DNA of 59,159 nt. Origin: Porphyridium purpureum. Taxonomy: Eukaryota. Under the pieces are notes generated by a model. It was not told the origin of the DNA, made no database searches, and was given only the letters and a program-made list of their open reading frames with translations. The position numbers were made by a program, and so were the translations under genes. Below are positions 5,601 through 44,446 of the stretch, in pieces (the first letter of the stretch is position 1; each line of letters begins with the position of its first letter). Location of the stretch: positions 1 through 59,159 of the forward strand of contig VRMN01000028.1 in the NCBI GenBank assembly GCA_008690995.1, in the 5' to 3' direction.

Positions 5601-6430
5601 TCCTGCACGCCGGCCAAAAGACCAGCCAGCTCCAGGGCCACGTGCGTCGCCAGAGCCGGCGCCATGCGCTTCCACAGGTGGACCCGCAGTGCGAGTATCC
5701 TGTCCAGGTACTCGTGCACCACGGGCACCGGCAGCCCAGCAAAGATGCGCTCCGTATCGTTCGCTGCATCTTCGTCACCAAGAGGGGCGGGTGGAGCAGG
5801 TGCAGCATCTTCCTCGGCATCAGTCCGTGTGCTGAAACCCCCAGGAGACCTACGAGGAGACCAGAAAACGCTGTACATCCACAGTACATCAGGTATGTAC
5901 AATCGTGGTTGAACCGTGTATACACCGCCCCACCGACCTGCTGTACCTTGTTGTCGTCGCCGTCGTTTGCGCGTCTGCGAGGATGTATAAGCGGCGAGGT
6001 AAGAGCGGCGCAGAGCGCGACCCGATCTAAGAAAGGGTAAGAGAGATGTTAGTGTGATGGAGGTAAAGTTGGTCCTGTTTGCTTTGCTTCTTCCTCTCCA
6101 CCGTAACAATACGGTACACACGTGGTAGTAGTATCATTGACAATAGTGGTACTGTGAGTTACTGTGGCGGTTCTGTGTGGGAGGTGCCTAGGTACAGCGT
6201 TTTGCAGGAGACTTCTTAGTCTGTTCTGGGGAGACCTTCCTTACACCACTGTACTTAACGATGGTACTGTGGCTGTACGGCGGTTGTACAGCGTATTGCT
6301 GGAGACTTGTCAGTCTGACCTGAGGAGACCTACCGTACACACACGTAAGGTCTTGCGACGGGAGGAGAAACATGTGTTGGAGCGGGAGTAGGAGGCTGTT
6401 GCTCGACAAAAGAATGGAGAGAATAGTATC
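2674..6430 (-). mobile_element. Non-LTR retrotransposon, CRE-like (RT plus restriction-like endonuclease), copy 1; 3' third degraded by many indels; 5' boundary uncertain
   Basis: RT motifs KPDGGVRPIAIGE, DISNAFNTV, GVQQGDPL, YLDDG, LPLRCGGLG; homology to the copy at 55273 starts exactly at ctctagggttactctgaat. Confidence 0.85.
3447..5900 (-). pseudogene. Reverse transcriptase ORF of CRE-like copy 1, frameshifted at ~5200-5240 and repeatedly below ~3870
   Basis: ORFs 5165..6121 and 3447..5468 are consecutive parts of one protein; the endonuclease part is scattered across frames compared with copy 2. Confidence 0.8.
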
Positions 6431-6658
6431 TCATGTATGAATGTATCTTTGGATTCCCGCAAAGATTTTGGCGAGAGCTTTCTGAACAGTTTAGTGATTT
6501 ACGCTATATCGGCTTCTGTTGTTTTGTCGACGGTACGAACCGGTCTGGCCGCACGGAGTATTACGCATTTAGCATGCGCTGTATACACGGCAGAAGATAG
6601 GACGTGGATTGCAGATTCCATTTTGTCGAAGCGAAGTCCTAACGTGCGTGTGTGGTCC

Positions 6659-9600
6659 TTAGTTGTACGTCAAAACATCTTCGAACAGAGACGGATTCAC
6701 GATGAAGTACCAGTTGCGCGAAGAATTTGTGGAATCCAAGAACGCAGTGATTTTTCCTGTAACATCTTGTGCATGGACCACGGACACAACGTCGGGAGTC
6801 CATTCCGTATGCACAAACACTGGCTTGAGTGTCTAGCATTGACTTGCACATGTCTGACCGCATACATCGTCCGCAAATCGCTGTATTACCAAAGCACTGA
6901 TCGTCTTTGTATGGATTCCAGACGTCAAGACAATTTTGGCTATGAGGATACACTTCCCGTACGCAAATTCCGTGAGGTCTGTCGTTGGATTCCTGATTTC
7001 CACCAAGTCCCATCTTGGACAGCCGTAGTGGTTCGGATATGCTACGATAGTCTCCACGGGAAGGGAGTCCCGCGCTAGTCTTATTTGTCTGTATGCGTAT
7101 ATTTCCACGCTAAAGGAGTTCGCGTCCATCCTGTTCAGCATCACGAATCGACGGAGTTCTTCGTCCACGTTATGCCACAATACTTCGTTTGGGTTGGATG
7201 TACCCACCGGCGTTTCAGCTGGATTCCAGTCTACTGGCATCCATGAGACATCAGGCTGTGTCTGCGTGCTTCCGCATACATCAAACCGAGTGTGCGCACC
7301 CGGCCATTTTCCATACGCTTGCAGATTATCGTTGTTGTTTGTGCCGCCGAACCTGCGCCATACTTGTGTTCCATGTTTTGTGGATTCCCAAAGTTCAGAG
7401 AAAGGTTCCACACTGCTTGTTGAAATTTGGTCGCAACGTTCCGTATACATGTAATCCAGTTGTGTTTCTTCATCCTGCTGAACGCGTCGCATCATTCTTG
7501 AGATAAGATCTCTATGGTTCCACACGCCGGTGGACTTAAAGTGTTCCTTAATTTTCTTGAATGCTTTCTCGCCGTCAGTGGTATCCCAAAATTTCAGGGG
7601 TCCGCAGTCTGCAATGGATTCCGCAAAGTGGGTGAGGGCATGGATTTTTGGTGCATTCCATGGGAGTCCAACGACCTTCTTAAACAAATGAAGGCTTTTC
7701 TGGAGCTCGCGCGCGTGAGTTGCAACCTTTGCAATGTCTTCGCTTTGAAATCCTTCACGATACAGGAGAGTGTATGTTTGGATAGCCTTGCAGCCAAGAT
7801 GGACATATGCCTCGCGAGAAGCGGGCGACAAAATGGACTCCTGGGAAACGACCATGATCATCTGTAAAAGGAATCCGAGTGAGTATGTATGCTCTGCGAA
7901 TTTGGTGAGTTCTTGCAGAAACGGTGACTGACGCATAGGTGTATATACAGCGTGTCGACGATGGAGTCCCTCCGCGAATATTACCCTCGCGATCACTTTC
8001 CACTTTTTACCGGCCCCGGAGTCAATGATGGCGCGCAACTGGTCCGCGCTGCTGCCCTTCCGTTGCGATACTGCGAGTTCGCGGGGCGGGCCAACCACTT
8101 CGGCATCTGGGTCGTCGCCTGATCTACCAGCTGCCCCTTTGCGCTTCTTTGTTTGCCTTGTTGCACATAGATTCCAATTATCTTTTGAAGGTAAATGGCT
8201 TGCAGACATGTTTCCATCGCTTCCATGCACATTATCTGTGTCCGAATTCTCATCGTCTGTATCAAGTGTCCACAAGAGAGAAGATTCTGGATTCTTTGGA
8301 GCACGTTTCTTGGTCTGAAGCGTTGTGAGGCGTTGCATGATCTTCTTAACTTCCGTTTGTGTGTCTGGGCGTGTCAGCAACGCCTTGGGTGCTGCTGCGC
8401 AAACGCCTCGCAACCAGAAAGCAAGGAATCCATGGAGTCCGTCAACGCCGCAGATCTGAAAGCGCCCGCGGGGGTCGAAGCGATTCCATCCCTCTGCAAC
8501 TGGGCGTCCGATAAAGTGGAGACTTTCAGCGCTTCTTTTGGACTCCCCAACTGCGCCGAAATGATTCTTCACAACGTTGAGACTTTCAAGCTCGTTTCGA
8601 TACACAACCGGTTTGGTCGTAACCCAGAAATCATGGATTCTATCCTGGTTGTCATCAGGTGGGTCAATATCAACCGTCGGGCTTCCGACCATACATTGTT
8701 GACATGGCATCTTCTGCCCTCGAGTCCCGGAAATCATTGGAAGTTTCGTGAAAGACATTTTTGCAATCATTGGCATATCCATCGACAGCTTGTAAAACAT
8801 GGGTACGAGCAGAAGCTTCGTATCCCCCAGGTTGACGGGGATTCCCAATACGTTTGCTTTCAGTACATGCCGGAATACCTCGTGCTGGATTCTATGCCAC
8901 AATGCAGAGTTTAACTCATTCTTCAGGTTCTTATCGTCTAGAGACGGATGGGTCTGCCCAACCACCTTCTGCACGGATTCCCTGCTTACGTTAGGAAGGA
9001 AAGTGACCACCGTAGGGTCTCGTACAGAGTCCTTGCCGAACATTTCCCTGTGCATGACACGGATCTGCAGTGGAGTTAAGGCGTGTCGTCCGTTTTTGGT
9101 CATGTGCGCTTCATCTGCAAAGACTTGAATTGGAAGAAGTACAGCTTTTGGCGCGTCTTGGATACCATACCTCGTCTCAATTTCTGCTCGAATTTTTCGA
9201 CCTGCGTTCCTTACAAGGTGTCCGTCCTGCGCGCACACTATTTTGTCAGATGTAGCACCGCTGGATACATCTACGTGGAATGTCCGCAGTCCGTGACGCT
9301 GTATGATGATGGCAGCGGATCTTACTATAATCTCAAGCGGTTCACGATATTGCACCTGCTCTTGGATTCCATTCTCAAGTTGGATTCCGCAAATATTTCG
9401 CCCCTGTGCGAAGGTCACATTCGTCGTGCGTGTTTGTGTGCGCTTGTTCCCTATCGCCTTGGACATCTTTTCCCGTGTTCTTGGATTCCACTGAAGCTTC
9501 GCAGCGAGCTGCATTTCGCGATCGAGCATTTTGGGAATCCGCGCCCTCAACGCGTCGCGTATTCTACAAATGGAATTATCCTGCAATGCCTCACGTCGAA

Positions 9601-10408
9601 GCTCTTCACCGACAACGCTGGTAACTCTACCTAGCGCCCTCCGTAAACATATTCGTAATAGCTTGGATTCCAGCTTCTTCAGTTTCCCCGCTGTTCGACT
9701 TGTGATGCCACAACCACTCATCACAGAATTCTGTGTACATTTAAATCGAAGCATCTCTATGGAATCCTCAACGGCTTGTGTATCACTCGATGAACTCTCA
9801 CTGAAAGCACAAGCGAGCGCTGTGAGCGGATCTTTGGGATTTCGTAGGCGAGTGCGGAGCGATTTCGTTGACATCGTAAACTCCCAAATATCCTGACACT
9901 CTTTGCTGACTGCCTTAAAGCTGGATTCCGCGACATCTTCGTCCAAATCGGTTTCGAACGGATCCTTGCGTGCAACGTCCAGCTCTGTGTCCAATCCATC
10001 TTCGACCGAATCTGGCGCGTGCCCGACATTTGTGGAGTCCCTGTTGCCACCACTGTCGTAACCGTAAATAGACTCTTCCCCATCGTCCATGGAATCCTCA
10101 TCGCTGTTGATGTCGAAGTAGTCTTCATGCTCTCCATTGATGCGCTCCTGGACATTGAGCTCGTTGTGACCGCTGTCATGCGTACATGCGTACGCCGGCT
10201 TCGCGATTTGAGTGGATTCCGCAATCACACGAGCCGATGCTTTGCGGGCCTCTACCATCTCTGGAGTCGGATAAAAACAGAATTTTTTGTGGATTCGCAT
10301 TTCAGCATGCACAAGCTTTTGCGTCTTCCACCGCGTATCCTTGATGCGAAACCCGCATCCTTCGTTGACGCACGGGTGCATGTCACCGAACTCGAATCTT
10401 GTCGCCAT
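6659..10408 (-). pseudogene. Plavaka-like transposase with a premature TAG at 6833-6835; probable start MATRFEF at 10408
   Basis: Motifs LPIQVFADEAHMT, LSMDMP, PCQQC, VDGLHGF, WNAPKIHALTHF..GPLKFWDTTDGEK; the frame continues past the stop (TLKPVF...WYFIVNPSLFEDVLTYN*) and matches the C-terminus of ORF 40227..44093 (WYYLLNPSTFEGVLEYN*). Confidence 0.8.
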
Positions 10409-11101
10409 GCTTTTTCCTTTCGCCCTCCAACAAGTATACTCGCGAGCGCACACGTTCACGCACTCTTGCAGACAAAATTTTAGGCCATGTACCGCGTCGC
10501 GGGATTCTAAATACTGACGGTTTAAGGTTGCGGGACTCCACCATCCGGATGATCCAGTCAGTGGGATTTTTCGCGACGTCCCACAGCTCCTGATGTTGCG
10601 CTCACCAAGCCCGCATTTTTCGGCCGAATGGACAGTGGTCGACTGGATTCCCGTAGATTCGAACGAGCCAACGCATGGCGTATCGCTGCGGACACACAGG
10701 TTTGAGTGCGCTGATGTGCGCACCGGTGAAGGCGACGCAAGAGACATGCGATACATCAGTCTCGCCCGAGAGAGCTTGCGTCTCGCTCGGCGTCCCGAAT
10801 CGCATCTCCTCAGACGAATGAATGAGCTGAGTTGGGTGCCAGCTCGCTGGATTGGGAGTCCACTGTGGTTGAACATGAACCACGCTGTGAGTGACTTATA
10901 CAAGGCCTACCTGGAGGAATCGGAATGCTGAGATAAGGATATCACTGAGCGAGTGGACTCCATCCGACCGATAGAGTGGAAGGCAGTGAGACAAATCAGG
11001 ACTCCCTTGGTCGTAAAGGGTTGACATGGCATTGATGATTCCAGACATGTCCGGGACCTCGAGGCGCGGTTTGTGCAGTGGATTTTGAGCATTGAGATGT
11101 T

Positions 11102-11323
11102 TGTCAATTATTCGTGTGAATAATTGACCAAGTACAGGTGTAGCTGTACCAAGTTACTTTGAGGGTTACCCGAACCCTCAATTTCTTGACCAGCGTATAA
11201 ATACGCGGCGAACGGCGGCGGGAAAGTAGCACTAGAACAAAAATAAAAGGTTAAGGGTGTATGAAAAAAGAACAAACCTTCCGCCCCGTGGGATAGCCTG
11301 ACGGGGGATAGAGATGAACGACA
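11102..11323 (+). repeat. 5' LTR of copia 1
   Basis: Direct repeat of 16634..16855 with 3 mismatches seen. Confidence 0.95.
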
Positions 11324-11373
11324 GTGATCACTCGGGATCTCTCCAGTGTTAGAAGTGTGGTGTCTGACTTAAG

Positions 11374-14300
11374 ATGACTCGTCGGGGTGCTAACGTCGCG
11401 GCGGGTGCGAGTGGCGAACGTGAGAGAGAAGTGTCTCCCGCTGGAGAAGGGATCGATGCGGGACATATGACGCAAATCAGTCGCGACGAAGGCTCCACGG
11501 AGTCCAGCGACCAGTTCGATCCCTCTCTTCTAATTAGCATGGATCTTGGTAGTTTTTCTACCGAAAAGAGGCTGGCGATTGAGGACTTACGGGACTTCGT
11601 CGTCATGTTCCGAACCTACAGCGGTGTGGCCTTGATGGTGCAGATGACTCGCCGTCTTCCTCGTTCCAGTATCCTGGATTGTGGCCTCTTTGCACGCGAA
11701 CAGTTTGCTTCATTTCTGACAGCAGCACAAGTACCAGGTTTTCGTCTATCTGACCCCGGTGTACCCACGATTGATCGTTTTCGCCGGATTTATGAAGACA
11801 GCAATGATTCCCGATCTTCTGCGACGGTGCTAGATGCGAACGGACGTACTCCGCAACGGGGAGCCGCACCTGTGACGGATACTTGGCAGCAAGACTCTGG
11901 CCGATTGCAAGCAAGTACCGTAGGTCATAGTTCTCAGCCCGTGGTGCCACCAATCGTTTCTGTGCCCGGCAACGAATATGGTCTTGCAAGAAACTCATCC
12001 ACAGTTTCGAAAATGATTAGATCGGAGGACATTTTTTACATGGACGAATACAAGGATAAGATATCATATTACCGGTGGAAACAAGAAGCCCTTCTTACGT
12101 TTGCGCGAGCTGAAGTCACCGAACACCACCGTGCTCCGATCCTCGGCATGATGCTGGGCGGAACGATCAAGATGTTTTATACCGACAAAGTCCAGTACAA
12201 TAAGAGCCTGAACGATGCTTTCGAATTACTTGATTCCAAAGTTTTTACCGGGGAATTTCATGAACAGATGGTTGATTTATTTGACGGGGTGAAGTTCCGC
12301 CACATTGCGAATCGCATGCGTAATAGCGGCAACAAAGGGATTTTACATGTACTGTACCATGATACTCTGAAGTACGCGCAAGGCTGCTTACCGACGGAAT
12401 ATCATGGCGAACGCCGCCTCCTCCGGGCTCTGCGCAATGCAGTAAGAGATGAAAGTTTCGCATCTGCAGTCCTGCTGAAGGATTTCAACACTGCCGATGA
12501 CCTATACGCTCATCTGGTGGGATGCATCAATATACAGTCGCGGATTGTACGACCGTCTTTGCCTGCATCCCAGCCACGCGCCCAACATCAGTTGTTCACC
12601 AGAGATTTACGTCATCAAGTGTCTTCCTCCTCTGCCGCTGGATCGCACGCGAAGAAATCCAGTGCGCCGTTTTGCCGCAATTGCAGCTCTCCTGAGCACC
12701 TTGCCATGCAGTATCCAGAACCGCCCAAATGTCATAATTGTGGCTCTACAAGTCATTTCATTACACAGTGCTCGGAGACATTGAATCAAAAATTGCAACG
12801 AGCGCCTGTTCGAAATATTCGCGCGCTTCTCTTCAGTAATGAGGATATGCAAGCGTCCGATATTGATCCAGTGTTGGAAAGGGTTGAGTCGTTTGAAGAA
12901 CACAATGCTTCAGGACACGACAACAGCATAGAGGACGAACTATTTTATTCCGCTGTCAACGACATGCATATTAAGTATGAACATCTGCAAAGTATCGCGT
13001 CAGCAACTCGCTCGTCAGGAGCCATCGGGCTTGCGCTACTTTCGCAACGTATGATTTCAGACTTCTGGGGTGTATGCGTTGATACCGGAGCAAGCTCCAA
13101 CTTTTGCTCACTACCACAGTGGCAAGCGTTTTGCGCATTATCGAACAGCCCGTCTTCGCTGCGTCCAGTCACAACGCGCTCCGTCGGTCTCGATATCGGC
13201 ATATTTCGGATCATCGGAACTGGAGAGTTTCGTCTTCCGGTCTCGTCTGATGTGTTTTTGACCGTGGATGTGGACGTTCTTGATACTTCCAAAGCAGAAG
13301 ATCCTCAGTGGCCTCCACTGGTCTTGGGACTGTTGACCATGGATCATCACTCATGCTTTCCGAACAATTTGACCGACGCGTTGGTGTTTCCAACGCTTCA
13401 GATTGAGATACCTCTTATCCGCAAATTTGGAAAACTTTTCATCGACCCTGCCATTTTCGCTCGAGCGTCTCCGCTGTTGACGTACGCGGAGCTGCGAGAA
13501 ATTCACAGAAAGTTCAATCACGCGAGCAGCGAACGCATTCAGAGAATATTTGATATCGCCGACCAACCTTTGTCCGAAGACGAGTTCAGTATTCTAGCAA
13601 GACTATCGCGCCAATGTCACATCTGCCAGCGATTCTCGAAAGCACCCGCGACGTTTCGCCTGTCCGCCAATGTCGAAGTCAATTTCAATCATACTGTGCA
13701 GCTCGATACATTCTACCTGCCGCACACCCAAGGCGAACGACCTATGCCCGTGATGCATATCGTATGCGAAGGCACCCGTTTTATGTCTGGTCAATGGTTG
13801 AAGCACGACTCTACATCGGGTGCTTTATTCGAGATTTTCTTCCTGTGCTGGATTTCCGCGTACAATGGCGCACCACACATCGTCAAAGTCGACGCAGGAT
13901 CCGCTTACGCAAGCCGAGAATTTCAGGCCCTTGCAAATGTGCACGGTATTCACGTCGACGTACAGCCTATCGAAGGGCATCAATCGATCGGACGAGTGGA
14001 ACGCGCGCATGGTATAGTCGGTATTATGTACGAGAAAATGATACTTGAAGATCCAGACGCAGACGCAGATGAAACGCTTGCACACTGCTTCTTCGTCGCA
14101 AACTCATCCTGTGGGCTTTCGGGAATCCCACCATGCCTTATGGTGTTTGGCTCGATGCCTCGGATGGTAATCAGTTCGATTCAAGATGTTCCCTCTCAAG
14201 CCGCGCGGATCAATGCCCTTGTTCTCGCACGTCGTGTGTACGAAGAATTCATCGCGAAACAGTACTTAAACATCGCGCTGAGCCGTCGCCACGCAGCGCT

Positions 14301-16010
14301 CGGTTCCGAAATGCAAGACACCGGTCCTCCTGTGCCTGGCGACCTAGTAATAATCGCCCGGGAAAGAAACCGCAGACGGAATTATGATGGGCCCTATCTG
14401 TGCGTCGCTGTTGATGGCCATAAGGTCTCAGTTCGAATGCCGCCCACCGGTGCCGTCCGGATTTTTCATGTTGCATGTGTACGCAAATATCGGATCGAAC
14501 CCGCTGCTGAGCTGCTAACGCAGCCCATATCTGCCCGCGAATATCGCTTGAATCCAGACCTGCAACTTCGCTTCAAGAGTTCTGATGAGGAGGAGCTTTC
14601 CTGGCTTTACAACCAGGGAGCTTTTATTATTGCAGAACGTGTACCCACCAACGCCGTCATCGTCCCTGCAAAAATGGTTCGTGTTCTCAAAAACTACCGT
14701 ACTGCTCACGAGACCACAAAATCACGCTTGGTCGCACTCGGACATGTGGACGCTCAGAAACGCTCTCTTATTGTCGAGTCTCCGATGCTGTCGCAGTGGG
14801 CACTCAAAGTTATTGTGTCCACCACAGTTCAATTCGGCTGGACAATTCATACTCAGGATGCGAAAAAAGCCTACTTGCAAGCAACGAAATCATTGCAGCG
14901 CCCCGTATATATTGTCTTGCGTAGCGTCTTGTGCAATCTATTCTGCAACGCGGTCAACATTCCGCCCCGTGACATCTTGTACCTGCTCGTCGTCAAACCG
15001 CTCTACGGCCTATCCGAATCCGGCATGTATTGGTGGTTTTCCGTCCAGCACGCATTATCAACACTGTCGCTTGTTCCGACACCAATGGATCCGTGTTTCT
15101 TTATTCAGGCTTCAGATGGCCTGGTAGGCGTCCTATCGGACAATATCATTTACGCTGGAACGCGCTCATTTCTCGGCTCCTTGCAGCAAAAACTCGCAGA
15201 ATTTATTATGTCACCAGCTGAAACGCCTCCGCTCGAATACAATGGCGTACGCCTTGAGCAGAATTTGCGCATGCACCAAACTGAATACCTACAAACGCTG
15301 CGCCGCTCCGCATTGGAAGCGCTTACGCCTGAGCAATTTTGGGACGCATTCGTTGGCTTGGTCAAACTCGCCCAGATTTACTACCTCTTTCGCCATCGGC
15401 GCTCGATCTAGCGGATACCGCGAAACGTGTTGGCAAATACCTCGCTGAAACCAAACGTTGGTATCTGCCGTACGACCGCCTTGATGCGGATTTCCGCGTT
15501 CATGCGTACAGTGATGCAAGCTTCGCAACCGATGGCACCCGGTCGCGCCTGGCTTTCTGCATTTTCCTGGTGGACGGTGTGCACCGTGCTCATCTTCTTC
15601 ATGCAAGGAGCTATTTATCTCCGCGGGTTGTACGCAGTGTCCTTGCCGCCGAGCTGTATGCCGCAAGTGACTGTTTGGATTTCTGTCTAGCCCTGCAGCC
15701 CACGCTGTGCTCCGTGCATGTACGTGATGTGCCGATCACTTTATTCACCGACAGCCAAAGCATTTTTGATACGGTGCACAAGGCCAAGGTTTTCACTGAG
15801 AAACGGCTGATGGTTGATGTCGTGCAGCTGCGAGAGGCGATCGCCACGGGCGAGCTACAAGACCTCGCTCACCTTCGAGCTTCCTCAAACATCGCAGATA
15901 GCCTTACGAAGTTTGATACTCGCCGTCTAATGTGGCACCAGTACTTCATGACGGGAAAGCTTGACCACGATGTACACATGGCAACCCAGCGGTATTCTCC
16001 GGAACTGTAA
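11374..16010 (+). pseudogene. Copia gag-pol polyprotein; frameshift near 15400; RT xVDD motif reads LSDN
   Basis: Zn knuckle CHNCGSTSHFITQC; protease VDTGAS; integrase HRKFNH..CHIC, QLDTF, VDAG, VERAH; RT KSRLVALG, KPLYGL; RNase H YSDASFA, TDSQS, IADSLTK. Confidence 0.9.
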
Positions 16011-16633
16011 TGTTGACCTGTAACCTGCCTGGTCGGTGAAAGGCCTTGAGTTTCATATCACATTCGACCAGTATACTATACACATGTGTGCAACAATATC
16101 TCGGCCTACCGCTTCCCAATCGCGTCCTCGTTTTCGTCGGCACAACTGCCGCACTGTGTACTATGCGTCACCAGAGCGTCAAGTCATTCCTGCGCGTTGT
16201 CTTTGCGTCAGAGCTCGATGCAAATTTACAAGGCCATTCAAGTTCAGCAAGTTCCTTCGCTCAGTGTGGCGAATTATTGCGCGCCATCGATCATTCAAGC
16301 TATCAACAACATATTGGTGCTCCCACAAGCTTGCGCCTGACTCGTTTTCTCTCGTCATTTCATCTGCCAAGTCTCGACATGTCGTTTTGCCCGTTTCGGT
16401 ACCGTACAATGACCAAATGCCGCCCATTTTTTGCGAGGGCGCCGGTCAATTGGTTTTTTTACAATCTCCAGTCCGCATTTCGCACGCTGTTTTTCGTGCT
16501 CCGTGCCTGCTTGAATGTCCCGTCGACTTCCTCCTCTTCGCTCGCGCACGTGTTTTCACACTCGCTCTGTGATTCAGCATTGCATTCTGGAGTATGTCAT
16601 TCGTGTGCCATCCCAGAAAGAAAAATAAGGGAA

Positions 16634-16855
16634 TGTCAATTATTCGTGTGAATAATTGACCAAGTACAGGTGTAGCTATACCAAGTTACTTTGAGGGTTA
16701 CCCGAACCCTCAATTTCTTGACCAGCGTATAAATACGCGGCGAACGGCGGCGGGAAAGTAGCACTAGAACAAAAATAAAAGGTTAAGGGTGTATGGAAAA
16801 AGAACAAACCTTCCGCCCCGTGGGATAGCCTGACGGGGAATAGAGATGAACGACA
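16634..16855 (+). repeat. 3' LTR of copia 1
   Basis: Direct repeat of 11102..11323, followed by TSD ATGTT. Confidence 0.95.
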
Positions 16856-17140
16856 ATGTTCACGCGCCGGGTCACGATTCTAGACTGGCGGCGTGCGATT
16901 GAAATGAACGTAGCGCGGTGGAACAGGCAGGTGAGTATGAACAAAGTCGCCGAGCCGAGTGGGTTGTACGACGTGTATCTCGAAGATTCCCGGCTGGCTG
17001 GCGCTGTGCGAACGCAGAGGAAGTCGGGAATTGAAGAAATTGACCAGGAACAGTGGAGGACTCCAGTCTCACCAAAAAAACTTAATAATGAAAGACATCG
17101 TGTTGATCTCTTTGATCTCGTCAACGTCGACGGATCCAGA

Positions 17141-18292
17141 TTACTGCAGTATTAATTGTGTGTTGATGACGTTGTGTGCCACGAGGCAGTCTGCGGCAAA
17201 CTGTCCCGCCTTCCCACGAGAAGCACGTACCTTTCGGACTCCATGACAGAACTCCGAACAAGGGCCTCGTCCAAATCGAGCACAACTGGAACCCCATACC
17301 TTTTCGTAACACTCAAACGCGCCACGAACCTCGGCCTTTGGAATCCAAGAATAGTTTGACCACGGATACAATGGATTAGCTTCAACATTCCAACACACTA
17401 AAAGATAGGACTCCATCTTTGCCCATACACGGGTCACGACAACATCAGCTACCGACTCAACCGATGAGACATTCATTGGCACACACTTCAGGCGCTGAAT
17501 TACATGCCCAATGCTTGCATTCTGAGAGACTGTTTTCCTGTCGAAGATGGGATGGGCTAGCAGAATATCATTTGGAATCCCCACGTCTAATGCATTAACT
17601 CTCTCGATACGGCATGGCCAGAAGTTCTTGGAGTCCCAGTCAACGATGACAATCCAGGATGCGCGGTGCCATTCTTTTTCTTCCACACTTTTCCTCTTGA
17701 CGCAATTGAAGGTACAATCATAGGAATCCAAATACAGATCCAAGCCACTTTGGGCGTTGGCCAACGACTGACGTACCCAAGCGATTTCCCGGATACCTTT
17801 ATTCCCGAGTTCCTTTGGCAAATGTACAGCTGGACCAACTCTGGGCTTAGCCAACTCACTGAGCTCGCCGAACTGGGTCCCGCGCACTTCCACTAATTGC
17901 ACCAAACGTTGCAGACTCGACTCCATGTCTCCGACAACGACCCCCAATTGCGTGATCTCGGCCTGTAGCTGAGCCATGCGGTTCTCGGCATACATAGACT
18001 GCAAGGCGTACTCCTGCCTATTGGAATCCCTATCACGCCTGGCCAACTCTGCGGTATTCTGTGCCAGAACTGCAGAGTTCAACAAGGATGCGACCCGTGC
18101 CCGCAAGACCTTATTCTCGTCTTCAGCGGAGACCGCTGGGGACTCCGTCGACCCGCCGGACGAGACTTCGGGACTCCCTATACCGCCCTGCCCGCGGACA
18201 ACATTGCGTCCTTCTCCCGGTTCCATCTTGACTTTGTGTGTAGCTTCACGTACATCACGTACGTGCGCGCACCAGCCCGCAGTTCGGTCCAC
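17141..18292 (-). CDS. Accessory protein of Plavaka-like element 1: coiled coil, PWWP-like region, Cys/His tail; start uncertain
   Basis: Colinear similarity to ORF 35118..36074 (AQNTxEL, EYALxSM, VDW..WPxxIER, LVCWNV..YPW.N.SW, RGxFECYE). Confidence 0.75.
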   Translation of the reverse strand: MDRTAGWCAHVRDVREATHKVKMEPGEGRNVVRGQGGIGSPEVSSGGSTESPAVSAEDENKVLRARVASLLNSAVLAQNTAELARRDRDSNRQEYALQSMYAENRMAQLQAEITQLGVVVGDMESSLQRLVQLVEVRGTQFGELSELAKPRVGPAVHLPKELGNKGIREIAWVRQSLANAQSGLDLYLDSYDCTFNCVKRKSVEEKEWHRASWIVIVDWDSKNFWPCRIERVNALDVGIPNDILLAHPIFDRKTVSQNASIGHVIQRLKCVPMNVSSVESVADVVVTRVWAKMESYLLVCWNVEANPLYPWSNYSWIPKAEVRGAFECYEKVWGSSCARFGRGPCSEFCHGVRKVRASRGKAGQFAADCLVAHNVINTQLILQ

Positions 18293-18561
18293 TCATACAA
18301 CGCTAAGCCAAAACCGATTGAGACTTTATCTTTTGGAGAGTACAGTCCTGGCCAAGATGTTTGCAACACCTGCATTTTGGTCCCAAAAAATTAGATCGTA
18401 TAGTAAATTAGCCCATTTTAATAGAAAACTTTTTTTTTACTCTTTTTTAACATTGTTAACATCGAGCATGACGATGAACCAAGGCGCGGCGCGCGCGTCT
18501 TTGTTTTCCCCAGACCATCAGAAGGTGCTCAAAGGATCTTCGCTCGCTCATCCATCTCGTC

Positions 18562-19629
18562 GTGCGCAAGTGGAGAGTCTCCAGATCGAAATTGAGCGCG
18601 CAACGGCCGAACGATGGCGCCGTGACTGTCGGAACACGAAAAAGGGCAGATCGACGCCCTTGCGGGCCAGGAGCTGTCGGCACGAGCAATTGCGAAGGCT
18701 TCATGACGCGCCCAGATCGCTCGCGGCCATCCTATGCAACTGTCAGTCATTTTCTTGTGCCAACGGGGCACCGGATCGTCCGCAAGAAGCCAGGTCCGAA
18801 ACGGCTTTTGAGTCGCAAATCGGAACGCCGCACCATTCGCGCCGTATCTGTTGATGCACTGACGTCCGGACAGGTGGTTCACGAGCTGCACTTGCAGTGC
18901 TCGGCCAGGACAGTGCGTCGGACGCTTCAAGCAGCAGGCTTTCTTCGCTACAAGCGAGTCTCGCGGAAACCTTCGCCGTCGTCTGACAACATCAGGAAGC
19001 AATTGGCGTTTGCCACCGCATTCATTGCAAAACCAATGGCTTTCTGGTATCAAGTGGTCTTTTCAGACGAGAAGATTTGGAGCTGCGATGGCCCGTTCGG
19101 CTCCTCACAGCGATGGGTCGACTGTCGCGCCAAGTCAAGTTCGTACGCCAGGCGCCAGCAATCTGGAGGTGGCAAGGTTCACATGTGGGCCGGTATGTCC
19201 CTGCGCGGCCTAACAATGGCCGTCTTCGTCGAGGGTGGCTTGAATGCCGTGAAGTATCAACAAGTCTTGCTGGAAGCCTTGCTTCCGCTTGGCCTGGAAA
19301 TGTATGACTTCAATTTCACTTTCCAGCAAGACAATGCCCTGGCACATACGGCCAACTCGACCAAGGCGTGGCTCGACGCACTCGGCGTCACTGTGCTGCC
19401 GTGGTCTGCAAGGTCTCCGGACCTTAACCCAATTGAAAACATTTGGGGCGTCTTGTCGCGCGTGGTTTACCGAAAAGGCCGCCAGTTTGCACGCGTCGCA
19501 GAACTTAAGGCTGTCGTGCTTGCGGCGTGGGCGACCGTGGCCCAAAAGTACGTAGTTCCACTCTTGGAGTCCATGCCTCGCCGTCTTCAAGCTGTACTAG
19601 ACGCGCGCGGCCACCACACCAAGTACTAA
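18562..19629 (+). CDS. Tc1-like DD34E transposase; N-terminal HTH appears to be out of frame
   Basis: FSDEK, FQQDNA, SPDLNPIENIW; 34 residues between the second D and the E. Confidence 0.9.
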   Translation: MRKWRVSRSKLSAQRPNDGAVTVGTRKRADRRPCGPGAVGTSNCEGFMTRPDRSRPSYATVSHFLVPTGHRIVRKKPGPKRLLSRKSERRTIRAVSVDALTSGQVVHELHLQCSARTVRRTLQAAGFLRYKRVSRKPSPSSDNIRKQLAFATAFIAKPMAFWYQVVFSDEKIWSCDGPFGSSQRWVDCRAKSSSYARRQQSGGGKVHMWAGMSLRGLTMAVFVEGGLNAVKYQQVLLEALLPLGLEMYDFNFTFQQDNALAHTANSTKAWLDALGVTVLPWSARSPDLNPIENIWGVLSRVVYRKGRQFARVAELKAVVLAAWATVAQKYVVPLLESMPRRLQAVLDARGHHTKY

Positions 19630-19725
19630 AGTCTCATCCTTCTTGATTTTCGTGTTTCTTTCTTACGTTCCAAAACTCGCGTCCCCCGCCGAATCCCTCC
19701 TTTTTGCCGTCTCCATTGCCCACCC

Positions 19726-20034
19726 TGTTACCAATGCTGTGCCTTTTACTCTGCTTCTTCTTCTTCTTACCTCTTCTTACCTCTTCTCTCTCCGAGCAAG
19801 ACCTGACCGGCTAGTCCGGGCAGGCGCGTCGCCTTTTTATACCCTTACTTCCGCCAGGGACAGCAAGGCGCCAAGAGAAATGACAATGCAAACCATTGGC
19901 ATTTCTGCGCGCGTCTAGAAGGTTCTGGAACCTCTAGAAGCTTCTCGAAACGGTTAAACGGTCTGCCGGTTTAACGGCTTACCGGTTTCGGATTAACCGA
20001 ACCGTTCTAGGTGACTGGGGTCGAACGGATAACA
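19726..20034 (-). repeat. 3' LTR of gypsy
   Basis: tgttacc...ataaca, repeat of 24908..25216. Confidence 0.95.
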
Positions 20035-20153
20035 TCTCCCCCCCTCTTGGCTCGACGTCTCGGCGAGACTCCAAACTAAGTTGCATTCTTGGCTCGAGGA
20101 ACCCGCGCTCCGGGAGAAAACCTCTGCCTAGCAAACTTCTCACAATTCCCAAG

Positions 20154-23100
20154 TCATTCAGAGTCAGACTCTTCGATAATTTTCAACAAGTCTGGCTTAG
20201 AATCGGACGCTGGCAGGCCGTCGGGTACTTCTTCATCATTTTCCCCTGCCATGTAGTCTTCGCGTCCATAGTATGGCTTCAGATGTTGGATCGGAAAAAC
20301 ATCATGACAAGCCACACCCTCGGGCAAAATCACTCGGTAAGCATGCGAGCTTACCTTCTCAATGACAGGCACCGGACCAAGAAACTTTGGTGCCGCCAAA
20401 TCACTCTTATTCGGCCGCAATTGCGGCGCCGTGACCAACACTTGATCACCAACTTGAAACTCCCGGGCATCCTTGCTTCGATCGAAGAACTTCTGCATTC
20501 TCCCCTGGGCTTCGATCAAATTGTCGCGGACTTCTTCATGGACTTTGCACAGGCGAAACCAGTGCTCCGCCATGTCCTTCGTCTGTCCGTCACGCGCAGG
20601 CGTCCACCCTTCGCTCGGCGGAAACCACGGATCCCTTCCATATACCACTTTGAACGGCGCGAATCCAGTGGCACTGCTTGGTGCAGAGTTGTACGCAAAC
20701 TCGTACAACGGCAAGTCTCGCACCCAGCCACTATTCGTCGCCATTAACTTGAGCATTTCCCGAATCACGCGGTTCACTCGCTCAGTTTGGCCATCTGTCT
20801 GCGGGTGGTTGGCGGTAGACATTGCCAACTTCATGCCCACCCGCTTGCTCAGCTGCTGCCAAAACGTGGACGTAAACAGCGGATCTCGGTCCGACACAAT
20901 CGACTTGGGGTATCCGAAACGGCTCACGACGTGCTTCACGAACAAGTCAGCACAACGTTTTGCTGTCAAGTCCTTGCGCGTCGGGATAAACAGCGCCATC
21001 TTCGAATAGCGATCCACCACAGTCATGATTGCATCACAGCTGCCTTCGCTCCGAGGCAGCTCTGTCACAAAGTCCATCGAAATGTCGACCCAAGGTCCTT
21101 CTGGGATCGACAAGGGCTTCAGCTTTCCAAACGACCGATTCTCTGACTTTGTCACTTGGCATGCGTGACAAGTCTTCACAAAACGGCTCACGTCTCGCTT
21201 CATCTTTGGCCAGTAGAAGCGAGTTATCAAAGATGCATAAGTTGTGTCCGCTCCACGGTGCCCTGCTGTCGGGATATCGTGGTGGAGTTGCATGACACGC
21301 TCTCTGAACTTCCTCGGTACGCAAACGCGATTCCTCAAGTACAAGAGCCCAGCTTCGGTTCGGAAACCTTGGTGGGTCGGTAAGTCACCCATCAAAGTAT
21401 TAAAGTCTGGGTCACTCGAGTACGAACCCACGAATGCCTGGAAACCTGTACCAAATTCATCACACCGAACTTGGTACTCTAGCGCATGTAACTCCGGCTT
21501 CCTCGACAAAGCATCGGCCACCACGTTCGACTTTCCCTTCACATAGTCGATTGTGATATCAAACTCGGCTAAAAAGTCCAGCCACCGTGCCTGTCGGCCA
21601 CTCAGCTCCTTCTGCGTCATCAGATGTTTCAACGCCTCATGATCCGTATGAAGCACAAACTTTGCTCCGTACAGATAAGGTCGAAACTCTCGCAGACAAT
21701 GAATGACGGCCATGAGCTCTCCTTCATAGCTGCTGTACCTGGTCTCTCGGTCCAGCAGCTTCCTCGACGTAAACGCGACCGGTCTGCCTTCCTGTGCCAG
21801 CCATCCCCCCACCGCGACTTCAGAGCGGTCCGTGTACACCTCGAATGGCTTTTCAGGGTCTGGCAAGGCCAACACCGGCGCTTCCGTCAACATGCTCACA
21901 ATCTTCTTGAAGGCCGACTTGCCTTCATCTCCCAGTTCGATCAGCTGCTTCTTCGACTTTGCGTTCTGCAACAGCGAAGTCAGCGGCGCCACGACAGTAG
22001 AGTATCCTTTGACAAACCTGCGAAACCAGTTTGTCACTCCCAAAAAGGATCTCAACTCTGTCACCGTCTTTGGCACTGGCCAATCTTTCAAAGCTTCCAC
22101 CTTCCGTGGATCCATGTTCACGCAACCGTTGCCGACAATGTTCCCCAGGTATTCGACTTCAGAAACGAAGAAGCTACACTTCTTGTGCTTCAAACGATAC
22201 CCCGCCTTTTGCAAGCGCGACAACACTTCCTTCAGGACCTCGCCGTGCGACTGCCTATCCTTGGTGAAGACCAAAATATCGTCCAAGTAGACAATGACGG
22301 TCTTGTCCAGCAGATCTGCAAACAGCTCGTTCATGGCCCTCTGAAAAGTTGCCGGCGCGTTGCAAAGACCAAACGGCATCACACGGAACTCGAACTGTCC
22401 GTACCTGGTCTGGAACGCGGTCTTCGGCACGTCCTCTCTCCGAACACGCAATTGGTGGTACCTCGATGCCAAATCCAACTTTGAGAAACAATGAGCTGCG
22501 CCCAGTCGATCCAGCAACTCATCCATGTTTGGCAACGGATACCGGTCCTTCACAGTTGCGTCGTTCAACGCCCGATAATCAACGCACATCCTCATGCTGC
22601 CGTCTTTCTTCTTCACGAACAGCACGGGTGCTCCAAACGGGCTCTGACTTGGCTGGACGAATCCTTTGTCCAGTAAGTCATCCAAAGTCTCTCGGAGGAC
22701 TTTCAACTCCGCAGGGCTCAGTCGGTAGACCCTGCCCACTCTCACAGGCTTTTCATCTTTCAGCCTAATCACATGCTCCACTGTTCGGCTCTCAGGCAGC
22801 CCTCGCGGCTCCTCGAACAGATTTTCGAAATCCTTGAGCATCTTTCTCACAGAGTCATCTCCTTTGCGCTTCACTGAACAGGGCTCCTCCCTTCCTTTCA
22901 GCACGCCGAGGTAGCACTCTTCTACCTCCTGACTCTTCAACAGCCGACGGAGCTCTTTCCGCGGCACCAGCATCTGCGTCATGCTCCAGGCCCTCTTCTT
23001 TCCGTAGGCCAACATGCCAGACTGCCAATCAATCACTGGGTTCTCCCGCTTCAGCCACTCCATGCCCAAGATTGCGTCTTGTCCCGCAATCCGGCAAATG

Positions 23101-23552
23101 GCAAAGTTAGCGGCTCCCGAGTACCCATCGCTCAGTTCAAACTTGACATTGGAGACTTCTCCGGCTGTTTCCAATACAGACCCATCCGCTAGGGTCACAT
23201 GATCTCTCTTCCACGACGCCTTCTGCTTCAGGCCGTCGGATTTCTGCACAAAGTCCACGCTCATGAAGTTGTCCGTCGCGCCACTGTCAATCAAAAACGT
23301 GGCCTCTCCGTCGGACTTGTGCACTTTTCCTCGAACTCGAAGAAGCATGGCAGCTCCCATCCCTCCAAGTTCCTTGATCACGGGCTGATTTGCGCTCGAG
23401 TTTCGCCCACAAGGTGTCGGACAGCCAGACCTTGGCTTACCAAGGCCACCACAGCGGTCTTCATTACCGCCCCTAGAAGTTTCGTAACGTGTGCGAGCCT
23501 CCTTTCCCTCTGACTGTCCGAGGAACCTCTCTACTCGAGCTCCTCGTTTTTT
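20154..23552 (-). CDS. Gypsy Pol (protease, RT, RNase H, integrase), probably entered by -1 frameshift from gag
   Basis: LIDSGA, YLDDIL, YTDRS..VADALSR, HDIPTAGH..CHAC, SMDFV, SDRD, GQTER; the frame stays open upstream to the AAAAAAC site. Confidence 0.93.
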   Translation of the reverse strand, partial: KKRGARVERFLGQSEGKEARTRYETSRGGNEDRCGGLGKPRSGCPTPCGRNSSANQPVIKELGGMGAAMLLRVRGKVHKSDGEATFLIDSGATDNFMSVDFVQKSDGLKQKASWKRDHVTLADGSVLETAGEVSNVKFELSDGYSGAANFAICRIAGQDAILGMEWLKRENPVIDWQSGMLAYGKKRAWSMTQMLVPRKELRRLLKSQEVEECYLGVLKGREEPCSVKRKGDDSVRKMLKDFENLFEEPRGLPESRTVEHVIRLKDEKPVRVGRVYRLSPAELKVLRETLDDLLDKGFVQPSQSPFGAPVLFVKKKDGSMRMCVDYRALNDATVKDRYPLPNMDELLDRLGAAHCFSKLDLASRYHQLRVRREDVPKTAFQTRYGQFEFRVMPFGLCNAPATFQRAMNELFADLLDKTVIVYLDDILVFTKDRQSHGEVLKEVLSRLQKAGYRLKHKKCSFFVSEVEYLGNIVGNGCVNMDPRKVEALKDWPVPKTVTELRSFLGVTNWFRRFVKGYSTVVAPLTSLLQNAKSKKQLIELGDEGKSAFKKIVSMLTEAPVLALPDPEKPFEVYTDRSEVAVGGWLAQEGRPVAFTSRKLLDRETRYSSYEGELMAVIHCLREFRPYLYGAKFVLHTDHEALKHLMTQKELSGRQARWLDFLAEFDITIDYVKGKSNVVADALSRKPELHALEYQVRCDEFGTGFQAFVGSYSSDPDFNTLMGDLPTHQGFRTEAGLLYLRNRVCVPRKFRERVMQLHHDIPTAGHRGADTTYASLITRFYWPKMKRDVSRFVKTCHACQVTKSENRSFGKLKPLSIPEGPWVDISMDFVTELPRSEGSCDAIMTVVDRYSKMALFIPTRKDLTAKRCADLFVKHVVSRFGYPKSIVSDRDPLFTSTFWQQLSKRVGMKLAMSTANHPQTDGQTERVNRVIREMLKLMATNSGWVRDLPLYEFAYNSAPSSATGFAPFKVVYGRDPWFPPSEGWTPARDGQTKDMAEHWFRLCKVHEEVRDNLIEAQGRMQKFFDRSKDAREFQVGDQVLVTAPQLRPNKSDLAAPKFLGPVPVIEKVSSHAYRVILPEGVACHDVFPIQHLKPYYGREDYMAGENDEEVPDGLPASDSKPDLLKIIEESDSE

Positions 23553-24337
23553 GACTCCAGCGAGTCTCCCTCCAGCTGCTGGATAGTCTTACTTGCCTCG
23601 GGACACGTCCTGGCGATGTGCCCCGGCTTTCCACAATTCCAGCATTTGAGCTCGCTTCGAACACGCCTCTGACCCTGCACATGTCCCAGCTCCATCGGGA
23701 CGGGTCCTTCCTGCGCTGCACGACCGAAAAATGGCGTCCTCACACTTGAATCACGCACGCCGCGGGTCGCATGAATGGCGTCGTCCACGACCACCGCCAC
23801 CTGCGCAGCCTCCGCGAACGTACTCACTCCTCGCTTGTACACTTCCAAGCGGACCTCGGGCTTCAGACCCCTCACGAAGCGGTCCATCATTTCTGCGTCC
23901 GACAAGTCCGGAATCACAAGTGCCGCGTCCTGAAAAGCCGCCACATACGCATGGGCCGGGCCTTTCTGCGAAAGACGCGTCAACTTGTCCCTTGCACGCC
24001 TGATCGAATCCTGCGGCGTGAACCGAGCACTCACGAGGGCAGCAAAATCATTCCACGTCGTGGGGATCTCCTGCGGGTAGCGCTCGCAGTTCAGAACCCA
24101 CCAATGAAGCGCCTCTCCCTCGAAATAGTCAGAAGTCAAGTCCACAGCACGCCTCTCCGCAAGCAGACGTTTCTCCAAATCGTCCGGGTGGATGCTCTCC
24201 AACAGCCGGCCCAAGATCTTCTTTCTCGCCTGGAACAACCACGTCTTCACAACCAGAAGGTCACGCTTCCCGTCGAAGCTCATCAGACGGGCCTCCTTCG
24301 GGCCACGTGGTCCCAGCGTCTCCGAATCAATCTCCAT
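23531..24337 (-). CDS. Gypsy Gag
   Basis: Retrotransposon capsid-like region (FVRGLKPEVR), PVPMELG, Zn knuckle CWNCGKPGHIARTC. Confidence 0.93.
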   Translation of the reverse strand: MEIDSETLGPRGPKEARLMSFDGKRDLLVVKTWLFQARKKILGRLLESIHPDDLEKRLLAERRAVDLTSDYFEGEALHWWVLNCERYPQEIPTTWNDFAALVSARFTPQDSIRRARDKLTRLSQKGPAHAYVAAFQDAALVIPDLSDAEMMDRFVRGLKPEVRLEVYKRGVSTFAEAAQVAVVVDDAIHATRGVRDSSVRTPFFGRAAQEGPVPMELGHVQGQRRVRSELKCWNCGKPGHIARTCPEASKTIQQLEGDSLESKNEELE

Positions 24338-24907
24338 GCTTTCTGAACTAAAGCACGCTCAACGATCACGACAACGACACAAACAGCAAGCCTCCGATGC
24401 TCACGTTCTCCAACAGCTGCGCGCAACACGAACGGGCTCGGTCGCCCTCAGGACCACAAATCGACACACGAAGCGGTCCTCTCACGCACACGCACGCACA
24501 GCAATCTTCTCACGCACACACAACAAAGCACACAGCAATCCTCCTCTGTTGCGCTGGATGGGGAGCGGCCCGGGCCTTTGCACTGGGGCGGGGATTATAG
24601 ATGCGATCTTGTATGGAGGTGTTCGGCGCCTACCTTCGCAAAGGTGGTCGTGCGACACTAGGATGAATCCTAGTGAAGGCTGACCGTTACGGCTCTTGCC
24701 TACTAATACGTGCTAAGGCAGAGAGCGAGTCCGCCGTCAAGGCCTAGGCCTATCGTACAGCCAAGACTGAGACCCGCTTCCGCCCGTCGCACCCTCCGGA
24801 TCGACTTACTCGAACCCCCTCACCCGCAGACTCTCCCACCCAGGCAACCCCAGAGAAACTCTAAGAGAACCTTAGAGCAACCCCAGGTAACCAGCGATGA
24901 TACCAAA

Positions 24908-25216
24908 TGTTACCAATGCTGTGCCTTTTACTCTGCTTCTTCTTCTTCTTACCTCTTCTTACCTCTTCTCTCTCCGAGCAAGACCTGACCGGCTAGTCCG
25001 GGCAGGCGCGTCGCCTTTTTATACCCTTACTTCCGCCAGGGACAGCAAGGCGCCAAGAGAAATGACAATGCAAACCATTGGCATTTCTGCGCGCGTCTAG
25101 AAGGTTCTGGAACCTCTAGAAGCTTCTCGAAACGGTTAAACGGTCTGCCGGTTTAACGGCTTACCGGTTTCGGATTAACCGAACCGTTCTAGGTGACTGG
25201 GGTCGAACGGATAACA
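24908..25216 (-). repeat. 5' LTR of gypsy
   Basis: Repeat of 19726..20034, adjacent to the PBS. Confidence 0.95.
25016..25132 (-). promoter_or_regulatory. Gypsy U3 promoter: TATA box (25016-25023) and two consensus heat-shock elements (25099-25132)
   Basis: TATAAAAA on the minus strand; aGAAggTTCtgGAAc and aGAAgcTTCtcGAAa; same motifs at 19834-19950. Confidence 0.7.
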
Positions 25217-25733
25217 CACCCGCTCTTTCCTTGCCTTTCCCTCCCGGTTGGACGATTCCCAGTGTTTCGCGGGACGTGCAATCGATTGGCGTGCTCAAAA
25301 CACACCCTTGTCTATCAAGATTCTTCACTTTTACACGAACTTCACTTTTTATGAGGGTGTTGCAAACATCTTGGCCAGGACTGTACTCACAAACCCTGAA
25401 CTAGAAGAAACAACAGAGTAAGAGAGGAAGAGCGGCGGGCCAAAAATCTCGTGCGGGCTAAAAGTCCCTCCTCCCTTGATAGGCAGCTTTGGCGCCTCTT
25501 TCCAAACCTGAGGGGTCGCCCTTTCGTGCCTCTCCACATTCCAAACCTGCGCGGGCTCAGATTGCGACCCTTCGCTTTCGACCAAAGAGATCGAAACCTG
25601 GTCATCGCTCGAAACGGGCGCTGCGCCCGGTGGCGATCCGTGAGCTGACGTGTGGATTCGTCACAGGGACCGGTAGTGCGCGGAGGCGACGGTGGTGAAG
25701 AATTTTTGTGTGGGGATTGGTTGGGTTGGCAGT

Positions 25734-31593: not shown

Positions 31594-31644
31594 CAGTCCG
31601 TGTGTTGAATATTTGCCCGTACTTTGAGAACCGAATACACCCAG

Positions 31645-31762
31645 GAAAAACTGACCGAAAAACTGACCGAAAAACTGAAATAAAGTGTAAGCAGGCCAAG
31701 ATCAGCTTTTCGGTCAGTTTTTCGGTCAGTTTTTCGGCCAGTTTTTCGGTCAGTTTTTCGGT
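31645..31762. repeat. Left subterminal 12-bp repeat array in both orientations (AAAAACTGACCG / CGGTCAGTTTTT)
   Basis: About 3 forward then 4 reverse units forming an inverted repeat. Confidence 0.9.
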
Positions 31763-31911
31763 TACGCCCATTACATTTAAGCATTACCCATTTATAAATT
31801 ACTTTCTTAGACATTACCAGATTTTAGAAATTACGTTTCGCGACATTACCAGACTTTGAAACCGGAATCTTTATCGGTTCACTTTTATTTCAAATTTGAG
31901 TCCTTACTTTT

Positions 31912-36074: not shown

Positions 36075-36138
36075 TAAAACATCTTGGACGAAATCTAGGT
36101 CTACTTCACATTAAAATGTATGCTCATATCGGATCATT

Positions 36139-37173: not shown

Positions 37174-37197
37174 TCGAAAGCTCCTTCCGTGTTTATC

Positions 37198-44093: not shown

Positions 44094-44184
44094 AAGACAA
44101 AGTCCGATGAAGTCTCATCTTCTCATGATTGAAATTATTCGCTACCACCCATCTCGCAAACTTTAAAGTTGCAGACAGTATCGA

Positions 44185-44426: not shown

Positions 44427-44446
44427 TCCATTTGTGTCACGGACTG

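Follow-up and report, generated by a model that had tools for sequence, protein, structure and literature searches.

Family-specific palindromes saturate the coding DNA of two sister transposons in Porphyridium purpureum

How does a transposon come to carry dozens of copies of one short palindrome inside its own genes, and what might read them? The question is raised by a 59,159-nucleotide stretch of the unicellular red alga Porphyridium purpureum (GenBank assembly GCA_008690995.1, contig VRMN01000028.1, positions 1 to 59,159 of the forward strand), called here the window, which holds two sister DNA transposons: E1, interrupted by a nested copia retrotransposon, and E2, which is complete. An original prediction held that E1 is saturated with the palindrome GGANTCC, including in coding DNA, and that a dimeric protein encoded by the element marks its own DNA through these sites. 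Family-specific palindrome saturation of coding DNA in the two sister transposons is real, strong and larger than first noted.

The whole window contains 57 GGANTCC sites. E1 holds 43 in 6757 bp (6.36/kb), counted over 5821-11101 and 16867-18342 (the element actually restarts at 16861, and no site lies between 16861 and 16867), and E2 holds three in 12853 bp (0.23/kb). The 38.8 kb of other DNA in the same window was used as background and shows 10 sites in 38817 bp (0.26/kb), in line with the predicted random expectation of about one per 4 kb. The counts first reported were exact: 33 sites in 6421-11101, 10 in 16856-18340 and two, at 11499 and 14122, in the copia, and all nine coordinates offered as examples are genuine sites. 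Within the window, the motif is not equally dense in unrelated DNA, as the other DNA and the nested copia both lie at background; with two sites only, this copia is an internal negative control. Markov models of orders 1-4 trained on E1 generated on average 1.7, 2.8, 5.5 and 15.7 sites, with maxima of 6, 8, 13 and 32 (150 runs each).

The sites are written into the open reading frames (ORFs), as had been claimed: counted from the conserved start of the transposase, 36 of the 43 are in coding DNA and seven fall outside the two coding sequences. In codon-preserving shuffles (n=1000, protein fixed), the transposase ORF shows 29 GGANTCC against 5.7±2.1 (maximum 14) and the ORF of the accessory gene, ACC, shows nine against 2.3±1.2 (maximum 7), and the enrichment was absent from all 11 other ORFs put through synonymous shuffling. 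All reading frames are used, with 10, 6 and 13 sites in frames 0, 1 and 2 of the transposase and 1, 3 and 5 in those of ACC. The central base is free (25 A/T and 18 C/G), and the sites are dispersed and non-tandem, with differing flanks in which T or G is mildly favoured next to the palindrome. The first 630 bp of E1 are devoid of sites. A shorter core of CcrM/HinfI type, GANTC, was considered and rejected, since variants at the outer G/C occur at background level. Site spacing shows no helical or nucleosomal periodicity (R<=0.15, 8 periods), and it is more even than random both in E1, with a coefficient of variation of 0.72 vs 0.97 (p=0.016; two of 79 control 4-mers are equally low), and in E2 (0.79 vs 0.99, p=0.0004).

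E2 is saturated with a palindrome of its own, ATNCGNAT, found 53 times at 4.12/kb, compared with 0.21/kb in other DNA (about 20-fold) and 0.44/kb in E1. The element also contains 154 ATCCG/CGGAT and 385 ATNCG half-sites, 106 of which extend to the full palindrome, and the preference at the centre (C>T>A~G) is graded, giving a binding-site-like profile. After synonymous shuffling, five of five E2 ORFs are enriched for ATCCG/CGGAT (50 vs 15.4, 14 vs 6.9, 30 vs 9.8, 11 vs 4.3 and 38 vs 19.6), and, as in E1, each gene tested carries its motif in all three frames; under the same procedure this enrichment is absent in two E1 ORFs and in six copia, gypsy, long interspersed nuclear element (LINE) and host ORFs. 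E1 and E2 thus have two motif systems each, one at the ends and another body-wide, the subterminal repeat words being CAGTTTTTCG (14 copies) in E2 and CTGTAC and GGAGAC (six copies each) in E1. Since two sister elements carry different words and the nested copia is untouched, host-wide mutational or codon bias is ruled out as the cause; a different palindrome in E2 would be expected with a family-specific reader encoded by the element, and not with a host-wide bias.

The palindrome has also reshaped the proteins encoded by E1. Peptide places compatible with GGANTCC number 41 in the E1 transposase against 14.1±3.2 with shuffled residues, and 13 in the E1 ACC against 4.8. Actual GGANTCC sites occupy 27 of the 41 and nine of the 13, compared with two of 24 in E2. 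The original prediction was to fail if the excess vanished once amino-acid pairs were controlled for: the protein does explain part of the excess, but the order of residues is itself skewed towards the motif and the signal is not simply removed. For the transposase sites upstream of an internal stop, the motif is unencodable at the aligned columns in 20 of 25 cases in the E2 protein and 21 of 25 in that of E3, a related family, in a comparison of three sequences where the polarity of change is not fixable.

P0006, an ACC homolog 35% identical to E1 ACC, shows 21 compatible places against 4.2 in the trimmed protein; the full-length protein has 22, four of them in the same column as in E1. These proteins suggest that the GGANTCC specificity persisted while individual sites turned over. 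When patterns were ranked from protein without DNA, in pattern classes picked with the answers known, GGANTCC came first of 1280 palindromic patterns for E1 and P0006, and ATNCGNAT for E2; among 3744 patterns, GGANTCC or its sub-word GAATCC was top for E1 and ATCCG for E2. None of 31 candidate stretches in viral contigs and none of 220 in metagenome contigs was confirmed as DNA of relatives, so that what is said of motifs in E3 and P0006 comes from the proteins only.

The CMCT (EnSpm/Plavaka-type) transposases are defined by the pattern D, D, C(2)C, DxxH, H(3)H, E (PMC12730594). The corresponding motifs FADE, SMDMP, PCxQC, DGLH, KIHALxHF and WDTTDGE are present in E1, E2 and E3, those of the E1 transposase (D, D, C(2)C, DxxH, H(3)H and E) lying at 9121, 8785, 8707, 7648 and 7588, and by this pattern E1 and E2 are assigned to the CMCT/EnSpm-Plavaka-type DNA transposons. 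E2 has the termini (5'-CA..TG-3') and a target site duplication (TSD) within the 2-5 bp expected of the group; E1 shares the left terminus, and its right end is absent. The label "Plavaka-like" given earlier is fair as to CMCT motifs and termini in the broad sense, but the CAGTC..GACTG termini are unlike those of PlavakaA (TGT..ACA) or PlavakaB (CATCA..TGATG), which are fungal definitions, and Plavaka membership is unproven. The Pfam Plavaka transposase profile matched none of the three transposases at E up to 10, in searches where HMMER filters drop weak matches, and the large minus-strand ORF of E1 has no Pfam match. The E1 transposase is 33-34% identical to those of E2 and E3, and its database homologs form three clusters only (E1 itself, E2 and E3), all named Porphyridium purpureum. 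E3 is a five-member family in which adjacent locus tags hold the transposase, ACC and gene A.

What could have written the palindromes is a separate matter. We judge it evenly poised whether GGANTCC and ATNCGNAT have been selected as sites where a family-specific, element-encoded and probably dimeric protein binds, coating its own element and keeping it active against host silencing. Under such a process, site-creating point mutations, synonymous or not, would be favoured because more sites bind more protein. The reader would be an accessory protein (ACC, or the product of gene A or gene X of E2) and not the end-binding transposase, since the ends carry different repeats. The benefit would be protection from chromatin silencing, the target being more likely histone-based than CG-methylation-based because CpG is undepleted in these elements. 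Reader and motif would diverge together, each family gaining a private address. Repeats in another unicellular red alga carry trimethylated histone H3 lysine 27 (H3K27me3), according to a review (PMC8566409), and listings of the Porphyridium literature on methylation and transposable elements gave nothing on these elements. We lean slightly towards the view that these transposons hold a dispersed-palindrome self-recognition code in their genes, in which every family has a private word matched to an as yet unclassifiable candidate DNA-binding protein of its own, selection for coating of the whole body rewrites residues of transposase and accessory proteins, and a new reader family has switched its specificity (GGANTCC vs ATNCGNAT); this would resemble HIP1, but within a single mobile element of a eukaryote.

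Related systems were compared with this arrangement. VANC and TnpA each bind a motif particular to their family and depend on its occurring at high density (PMC5735166; 10.64898/2026.08.24.746577). The Arabidopsis VANDAL comparison made in the original prediction is partial. As in VANDAL, related families each accumulate a different short motif and an accessory gene adjoins the transposase; VANC motifs, however, are 8-9-base words in non-coding tandem repeats, with coding regions free of them (PMC5735166, PMC10398659), whereas those of E1 and E2 are palindromic and dispersed, in E1 mostly within genes (36 of 43), and alter the proteins. Furthermore, VANDAL elements are Mutator-like, and E1 and E2, which show no CpG depletion, encode proteins without detected homology to VANC. 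Spm/CACTA belongs to the same EnSpm/CMCT clade, and in Spm a family-specific motif at high density is bound by an accessory protein, TnpA. Its motifs and effects are described as confined to termini (10.64898/2026.08.24.746577), unlike E1 and E2, which add a second, body-wide motif to their subterminal repeats. TnpA is also reportedly transposase-derived, while profile comparison detects no resemblance of ACC or gene A to the transposase. E1 and E2 therefore resemble the VANC and TnpA systems in their family-private motifs but, by this comparison, fail their defining site placement.

Fungal and red-seaweed Plavaka elements share with E1 and E2 a DDE transposase with C(2)C and H(3)H, CA..TG termini, a 2-bp TSD, large size, several accessory genes and, in part, a red-algal host (PMC12730594; 10.1101/2025.02.11.637652); they differ in that E1 and E2 have CAGTCCGTG termini and no detected methylase, SET or 2-oxoglutarate (2OG)-oxygenase gene. 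Red-algal Plavaka elements carry chromatin-type accessory genes and are reported from Bangiophyceae and Florideophyceae only; for Bostrychia PAG3, the suggested targets are arrays of tandem inverted repeats next to the PAG3 gene, not dispersed coding sites (10.1101/2025.02.11.637652). Of the florideophyte PAG cassette, neither the N6-adenine methylase and SET domains of PAG2 nor the ParB-like/2OG oxygenase of PAG3 gave a Pfam match in ACC, A or X, the right arm of E1 being absent. The cyanobacterial HIP1 palindrome occurs in excess in every frame of coding DNA, where it is also conserved (PMC4390886, PMC5861425). HIP1 and the alternate HIPs are like the present case in that a palindrome of coding DNA is swapped for other words in some lineages, with its mechanism debated; HIP1, however, is genome-wide in bacteria, while here the saturation is limited to single eukaryotic transposon families, with two different words in the one genome, at 4-6 per kb. 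Bacterial DNA uptake sequences are a further instance of short over-represented words. Literature on GGANTCC, or on this concept, was not found in a search of incomplete coverage.

ACC, A and X remain candidate readers of the palindromes; the palindromy suggests a dimer, and a long coiled coil is predicted in ACC, at the N-terminus of the E1 protein, followed by a Trp/Cys-rich C-terminal domain. ACC forms only three clusters among 1.84 billion representatives. Gene X has been seen in E2 copies only, and gene A has a helical C-terminal domain conserved in E3 and an N-terminal stretch whose similarity to PHD_NSD (E=0.4) is below the cutoff. By eye, the C-terminal domain of ACC resembles a PWWP or chromo domain of the Royal-family beta-barrel fold and gene A a helix-hairpin-helix glycosylase, both without tool support; the chromo lead scored 0.81, inside the range of shuffled proteins. 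Weak bZIP matches (E 0.2-2.5) reflect the coiled coil only. An origin of ACC or gene A in the transposase was rejected, hhalign giving probabilities of 0.1 and 0.7%.

Several results weigh against an anti-silencing reader encoded by the element. ACC, gene A and gene X have no match to a DNA-binding or DNA-modifying family in Pfam (to E=10), NCBIfam, PHROGs or PDB sequences; the structural model of ACC is weak (predicted local distance difference test, pLDDT, 57) and that of gene A unusable (pLDDT 33), and the ACC model has no Foldseek match at E<=0.001 and gave coiled coils only with VIA-align (Z about 7). Words one mismatch away from GGANTCC show no enrichment (32 vs 25±5 and 40±5), and this lack of a halo of near-matches fits an exact site of enzyme type equally well as a binder. 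The longest-gap test of site spacing is non-significant (p=0.13, 0.06 and 0.86). CpG observed/expected ratios of 1.07 (E1), 1.32 (E2), 1.22 (copia) and 1.02 (gypsy) show no depletion, thus no trace of silencing by 5-methylcytosine at CG to escape, which argues against a literal role in demethylating such sites. In the E3 proteins no palindrome leaves an imprint stronger than in shuffled sequences (best log10p -3.4, against -2.6 to -3.8 for the 12 shuffles of the null), with a marginal non-palindromic, asymmetric signal (-4.8 vs -3.7 in controls); as E3 has ACC and no clear imprint, the trait is not universal on present showing, and ACC alone may not explain the imprint. The non-coding or terminal placement of the known VANC and TnpA sites would count on the same side.

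The reader might be element-encoded and yet serve transposition mechanics, through coating or compaction that favours end synapsis, cis-preference or immunity to self-insertion, which we think rather unlikely. Spm transposition does require TnpA-type accessory proteins (10.64898/2026.08.24.746577). Family specificity, protein imprint and spacing are equally compatible with such a role, as is the absence of CpG depletion, and the elements are long (12.9 kb for E2 and more than 10 kb for E1 in run X5, an independent run). The ends, however, already hold dense subterminal repeats of their own, the usual place of transpososome assembly, and any coating failed to exclude copia or Tc1 from E1.

Under molecular drive, an element-encoded modifying enzyme, for example an adenine or cytosine methyltransferase in the missing arm of E1 or in gene A or X, together with biased repair, could repeatedly turn near-matches inside the element into sites of little or no benefit, in the manner suggested for HIP1. 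GGANTCC is exact and restriction-site-like, without a halo of near-matches, and the turnover of sites fits replenishment. An N6-adenine methylase domain is present in PAG2 of red-algal Plavaka elements (10.1101/2025.02.11.637652), and a model of methylation-coupled repair has been published for HIP1. A diffusible enzyme, however, would act genome-wide, and the nested copia and the flanks are at background; one-mismatch neighbours are not clearly depleted, the graded profile of E2 is not enzyme-like, even spacing is unexpected from drive alone, and ACC, A and X matched no methyltransferase. We consider this quite unlikely.

Host proteins could also be the readers, each family having recruited a different transcription or chromatin factor, or the motif load could be left over from a former host or carrier replicon in which the word was genome-wide. 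Transposons often carry sites for host factors (introduction of 10.64898/2026.08.24.746577). The searches turned up no element-encoded reader, and E3 lacks a clear imprint, both of which fit. What makes this very unlikely is that one genome contains two sister families with unrelated motifs, that every named homolog comes from one species, and that the high occupancy (27 of 41) and the persistence to a 35%-identical relative indicate a long-lasting process and not a decaying relic. Sites for host factors, moreover, are as a rule concentrated in promoters or termini and not spread across whole ORFs. An artefact of codon usage, amino-acid composition, tandem duplication or assembly is hardly credible and is refuted by the synonymous shuffles, the residue shuffles and the density and Markov counts: the synonymous-shuffle expectation for the transposase does exceed that from base composition (about 2), so that protein sequence explains part of the excess, but the observed counts are above every shuffle and Markov run, the sites use all frames, differ in their flanks and in seven cases lie outside the two coding sequences, and the contig is 98% identical to that of run X5 over 6140-11096.

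The transposon self-recognition systems compared here, VANC and TnpA, keep their sites non-coding or terminal, while E1 and E2 carry different palindromes within their genes, at 4-6 per kb, and the protein sequences visibly pay for it. If such a reader exists, E1 and E2 would offer a compact, testable model, with three to four candidate genes per element, for the origin and switching of HIP1-like palindromes. Such readers would also make up a new family of sequence-specific DNA-binding proteins whose specificity variants arose naturally, and would be evidence for an arms race between transposon and host in a unicellular red alga without a CpG-depletion signature. With the protein-only imprint scan, similar systems could be sought in further genomes from protein sequences, no DNA being needed.

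Table 1. Coordinates of E1, E2 and associated features in the window (TIR, terminal inverted repeat; LTR, long terminal repeat).
Feature	Position	Strand	Remarks
E1 left terminus (TIR) CAGTCCGTG	5821..5829	+	15/16 bases equal to E2 left terminus
E1 subterminal region	5821..6450		repeated words CTGTAC x6, GGAGAC x6; zero GGANTCC
E1 left part	6451..11005		33 dispersed GGANTCC palindromes
E1 transposase	6659..10408	-	about 1250 aa from conserved start; frame open to 10906; 27 GGANTCC
Copia LTR retrotransposon nested in E1	11102..16855	+	5-bp TSD at 11097-11101 and 16856-16860
E1 right part	17058..18177		10 dispersed GGANTCC palindromes
E1 accessory gene ACC (P0005, 361 aa)	17141..18226	-	9 GGANTCC; candidate reader
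Tc1/mariner element with nested Ty3	18343..25383	+	truncation point of E1
Sister element E2, 12853 bp, complete	31594..44446	+	TIR CAGTCCGTG...CACGGACTG; 2-bp TSD TC
E2 left subterminal repeats	31656..31760		CAGTTTTTCG x6; differ from E2 body-wide motif
E2 gene A (P0021, 883 aa)	31912..34563	-	candidate reader or effector; weak PHD-like N-terminal stretch
E2 accessory gene ACC (318 aa)	35118..36074	+	33% identical to E1 ACC
E2 gene X	36139..39795	-	two ORFs here; recorded product 1196 aa (P0018/P0019); no family match
E2 transposase (1288 aa)	40227..44093	+	50 ATCCG/CGGAT sites
E2 right subterminal repeats	44186..44446		CAGTTTTTCG x8, plus right TIR 44438-44446
Second E1 left end, identical copy	58425..59159	+	in duplicated LINE+E1 block 55273-59159 = 2674-6555; includes GGANTCC at 59055

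The features of both elements are collected in Table 1. E1 is inserted in an ORF of a non-LTR retrotransposon, and its window copy retains the transposase and one accessory gene (ACC), with the right arm absent. A contig of run X5 shows 88 differences from E1 over 6140-11096, presents the copia-free, empty site and runs 3.5 kb past 18342 into sequence absent from the window; therefore, the copia was inserted later and E1 is truncated here at the Tc1 element. The E1 transposase has one in-frame TAG at 6833-6835, 58 codons ahead of the conserved end, and the recorded protein splices around this stop. Low-level, 3'-biased sense-strand reads of the transposase were found in two RNA runs from one study and may stem from other copies, read orientation being deduced from the plus-strand Tc1 gene.

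E2 interrupts a copia gag, whose frame is continuous at the empty site. A third CAGTCCGTG terminus at 29406-29432, with a Tc1 insertion 27 bp on, is a remnant of another element of the same family. Genes of E1 and E2 (P0004, P0012, P0018 and P0019) are neighbours on three contigs, so that the nest is apparently segmentally duplicated or haplotype-redundant and not independently transposed.

The non-LTR retrotransposon occurs at 2674-5820 and 55273-58424 and encodes a reverse transcriptase and, by eye, a C-terminal CCHC and PD-(D/E)xK-like stretch. Together with the left end of E1 it forms a duplicated block of mosaic identity, 77-93% at the 3' end and 98-100% in most bins from about 4000, which suggests gene conversion or a chimera. 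The Tc1/mariner copies at 18343-25383 and 29433-30953 are 97% identical and in inverted orientation, and the first holds a Ty3 with near-identical LTRs; an additional Tc1 TIR lies at 52137-52169, and Tc1-like reads are far deeper than the rest of the compared stretch in both RNA runs. Two in-frame ORFs split by one stop at 49475-51136 have no Pfam match; by an HSLRKG...Y pattern they look like a Crypton-type tyrosine recombinase. The aldehyde dehydrogenase gene at 53890-55197 adjoins the duplicated block, contains several in-frame stops and is probably a pseudogene. Finally, a C-rich (CCGCCCT)n tract of about 250 bp occupies 51794-52051, and positions 1-1823 contain about 15 copies of a 111-bp unit that, by eye, encodes Sel1-like repeats on the plus strand.

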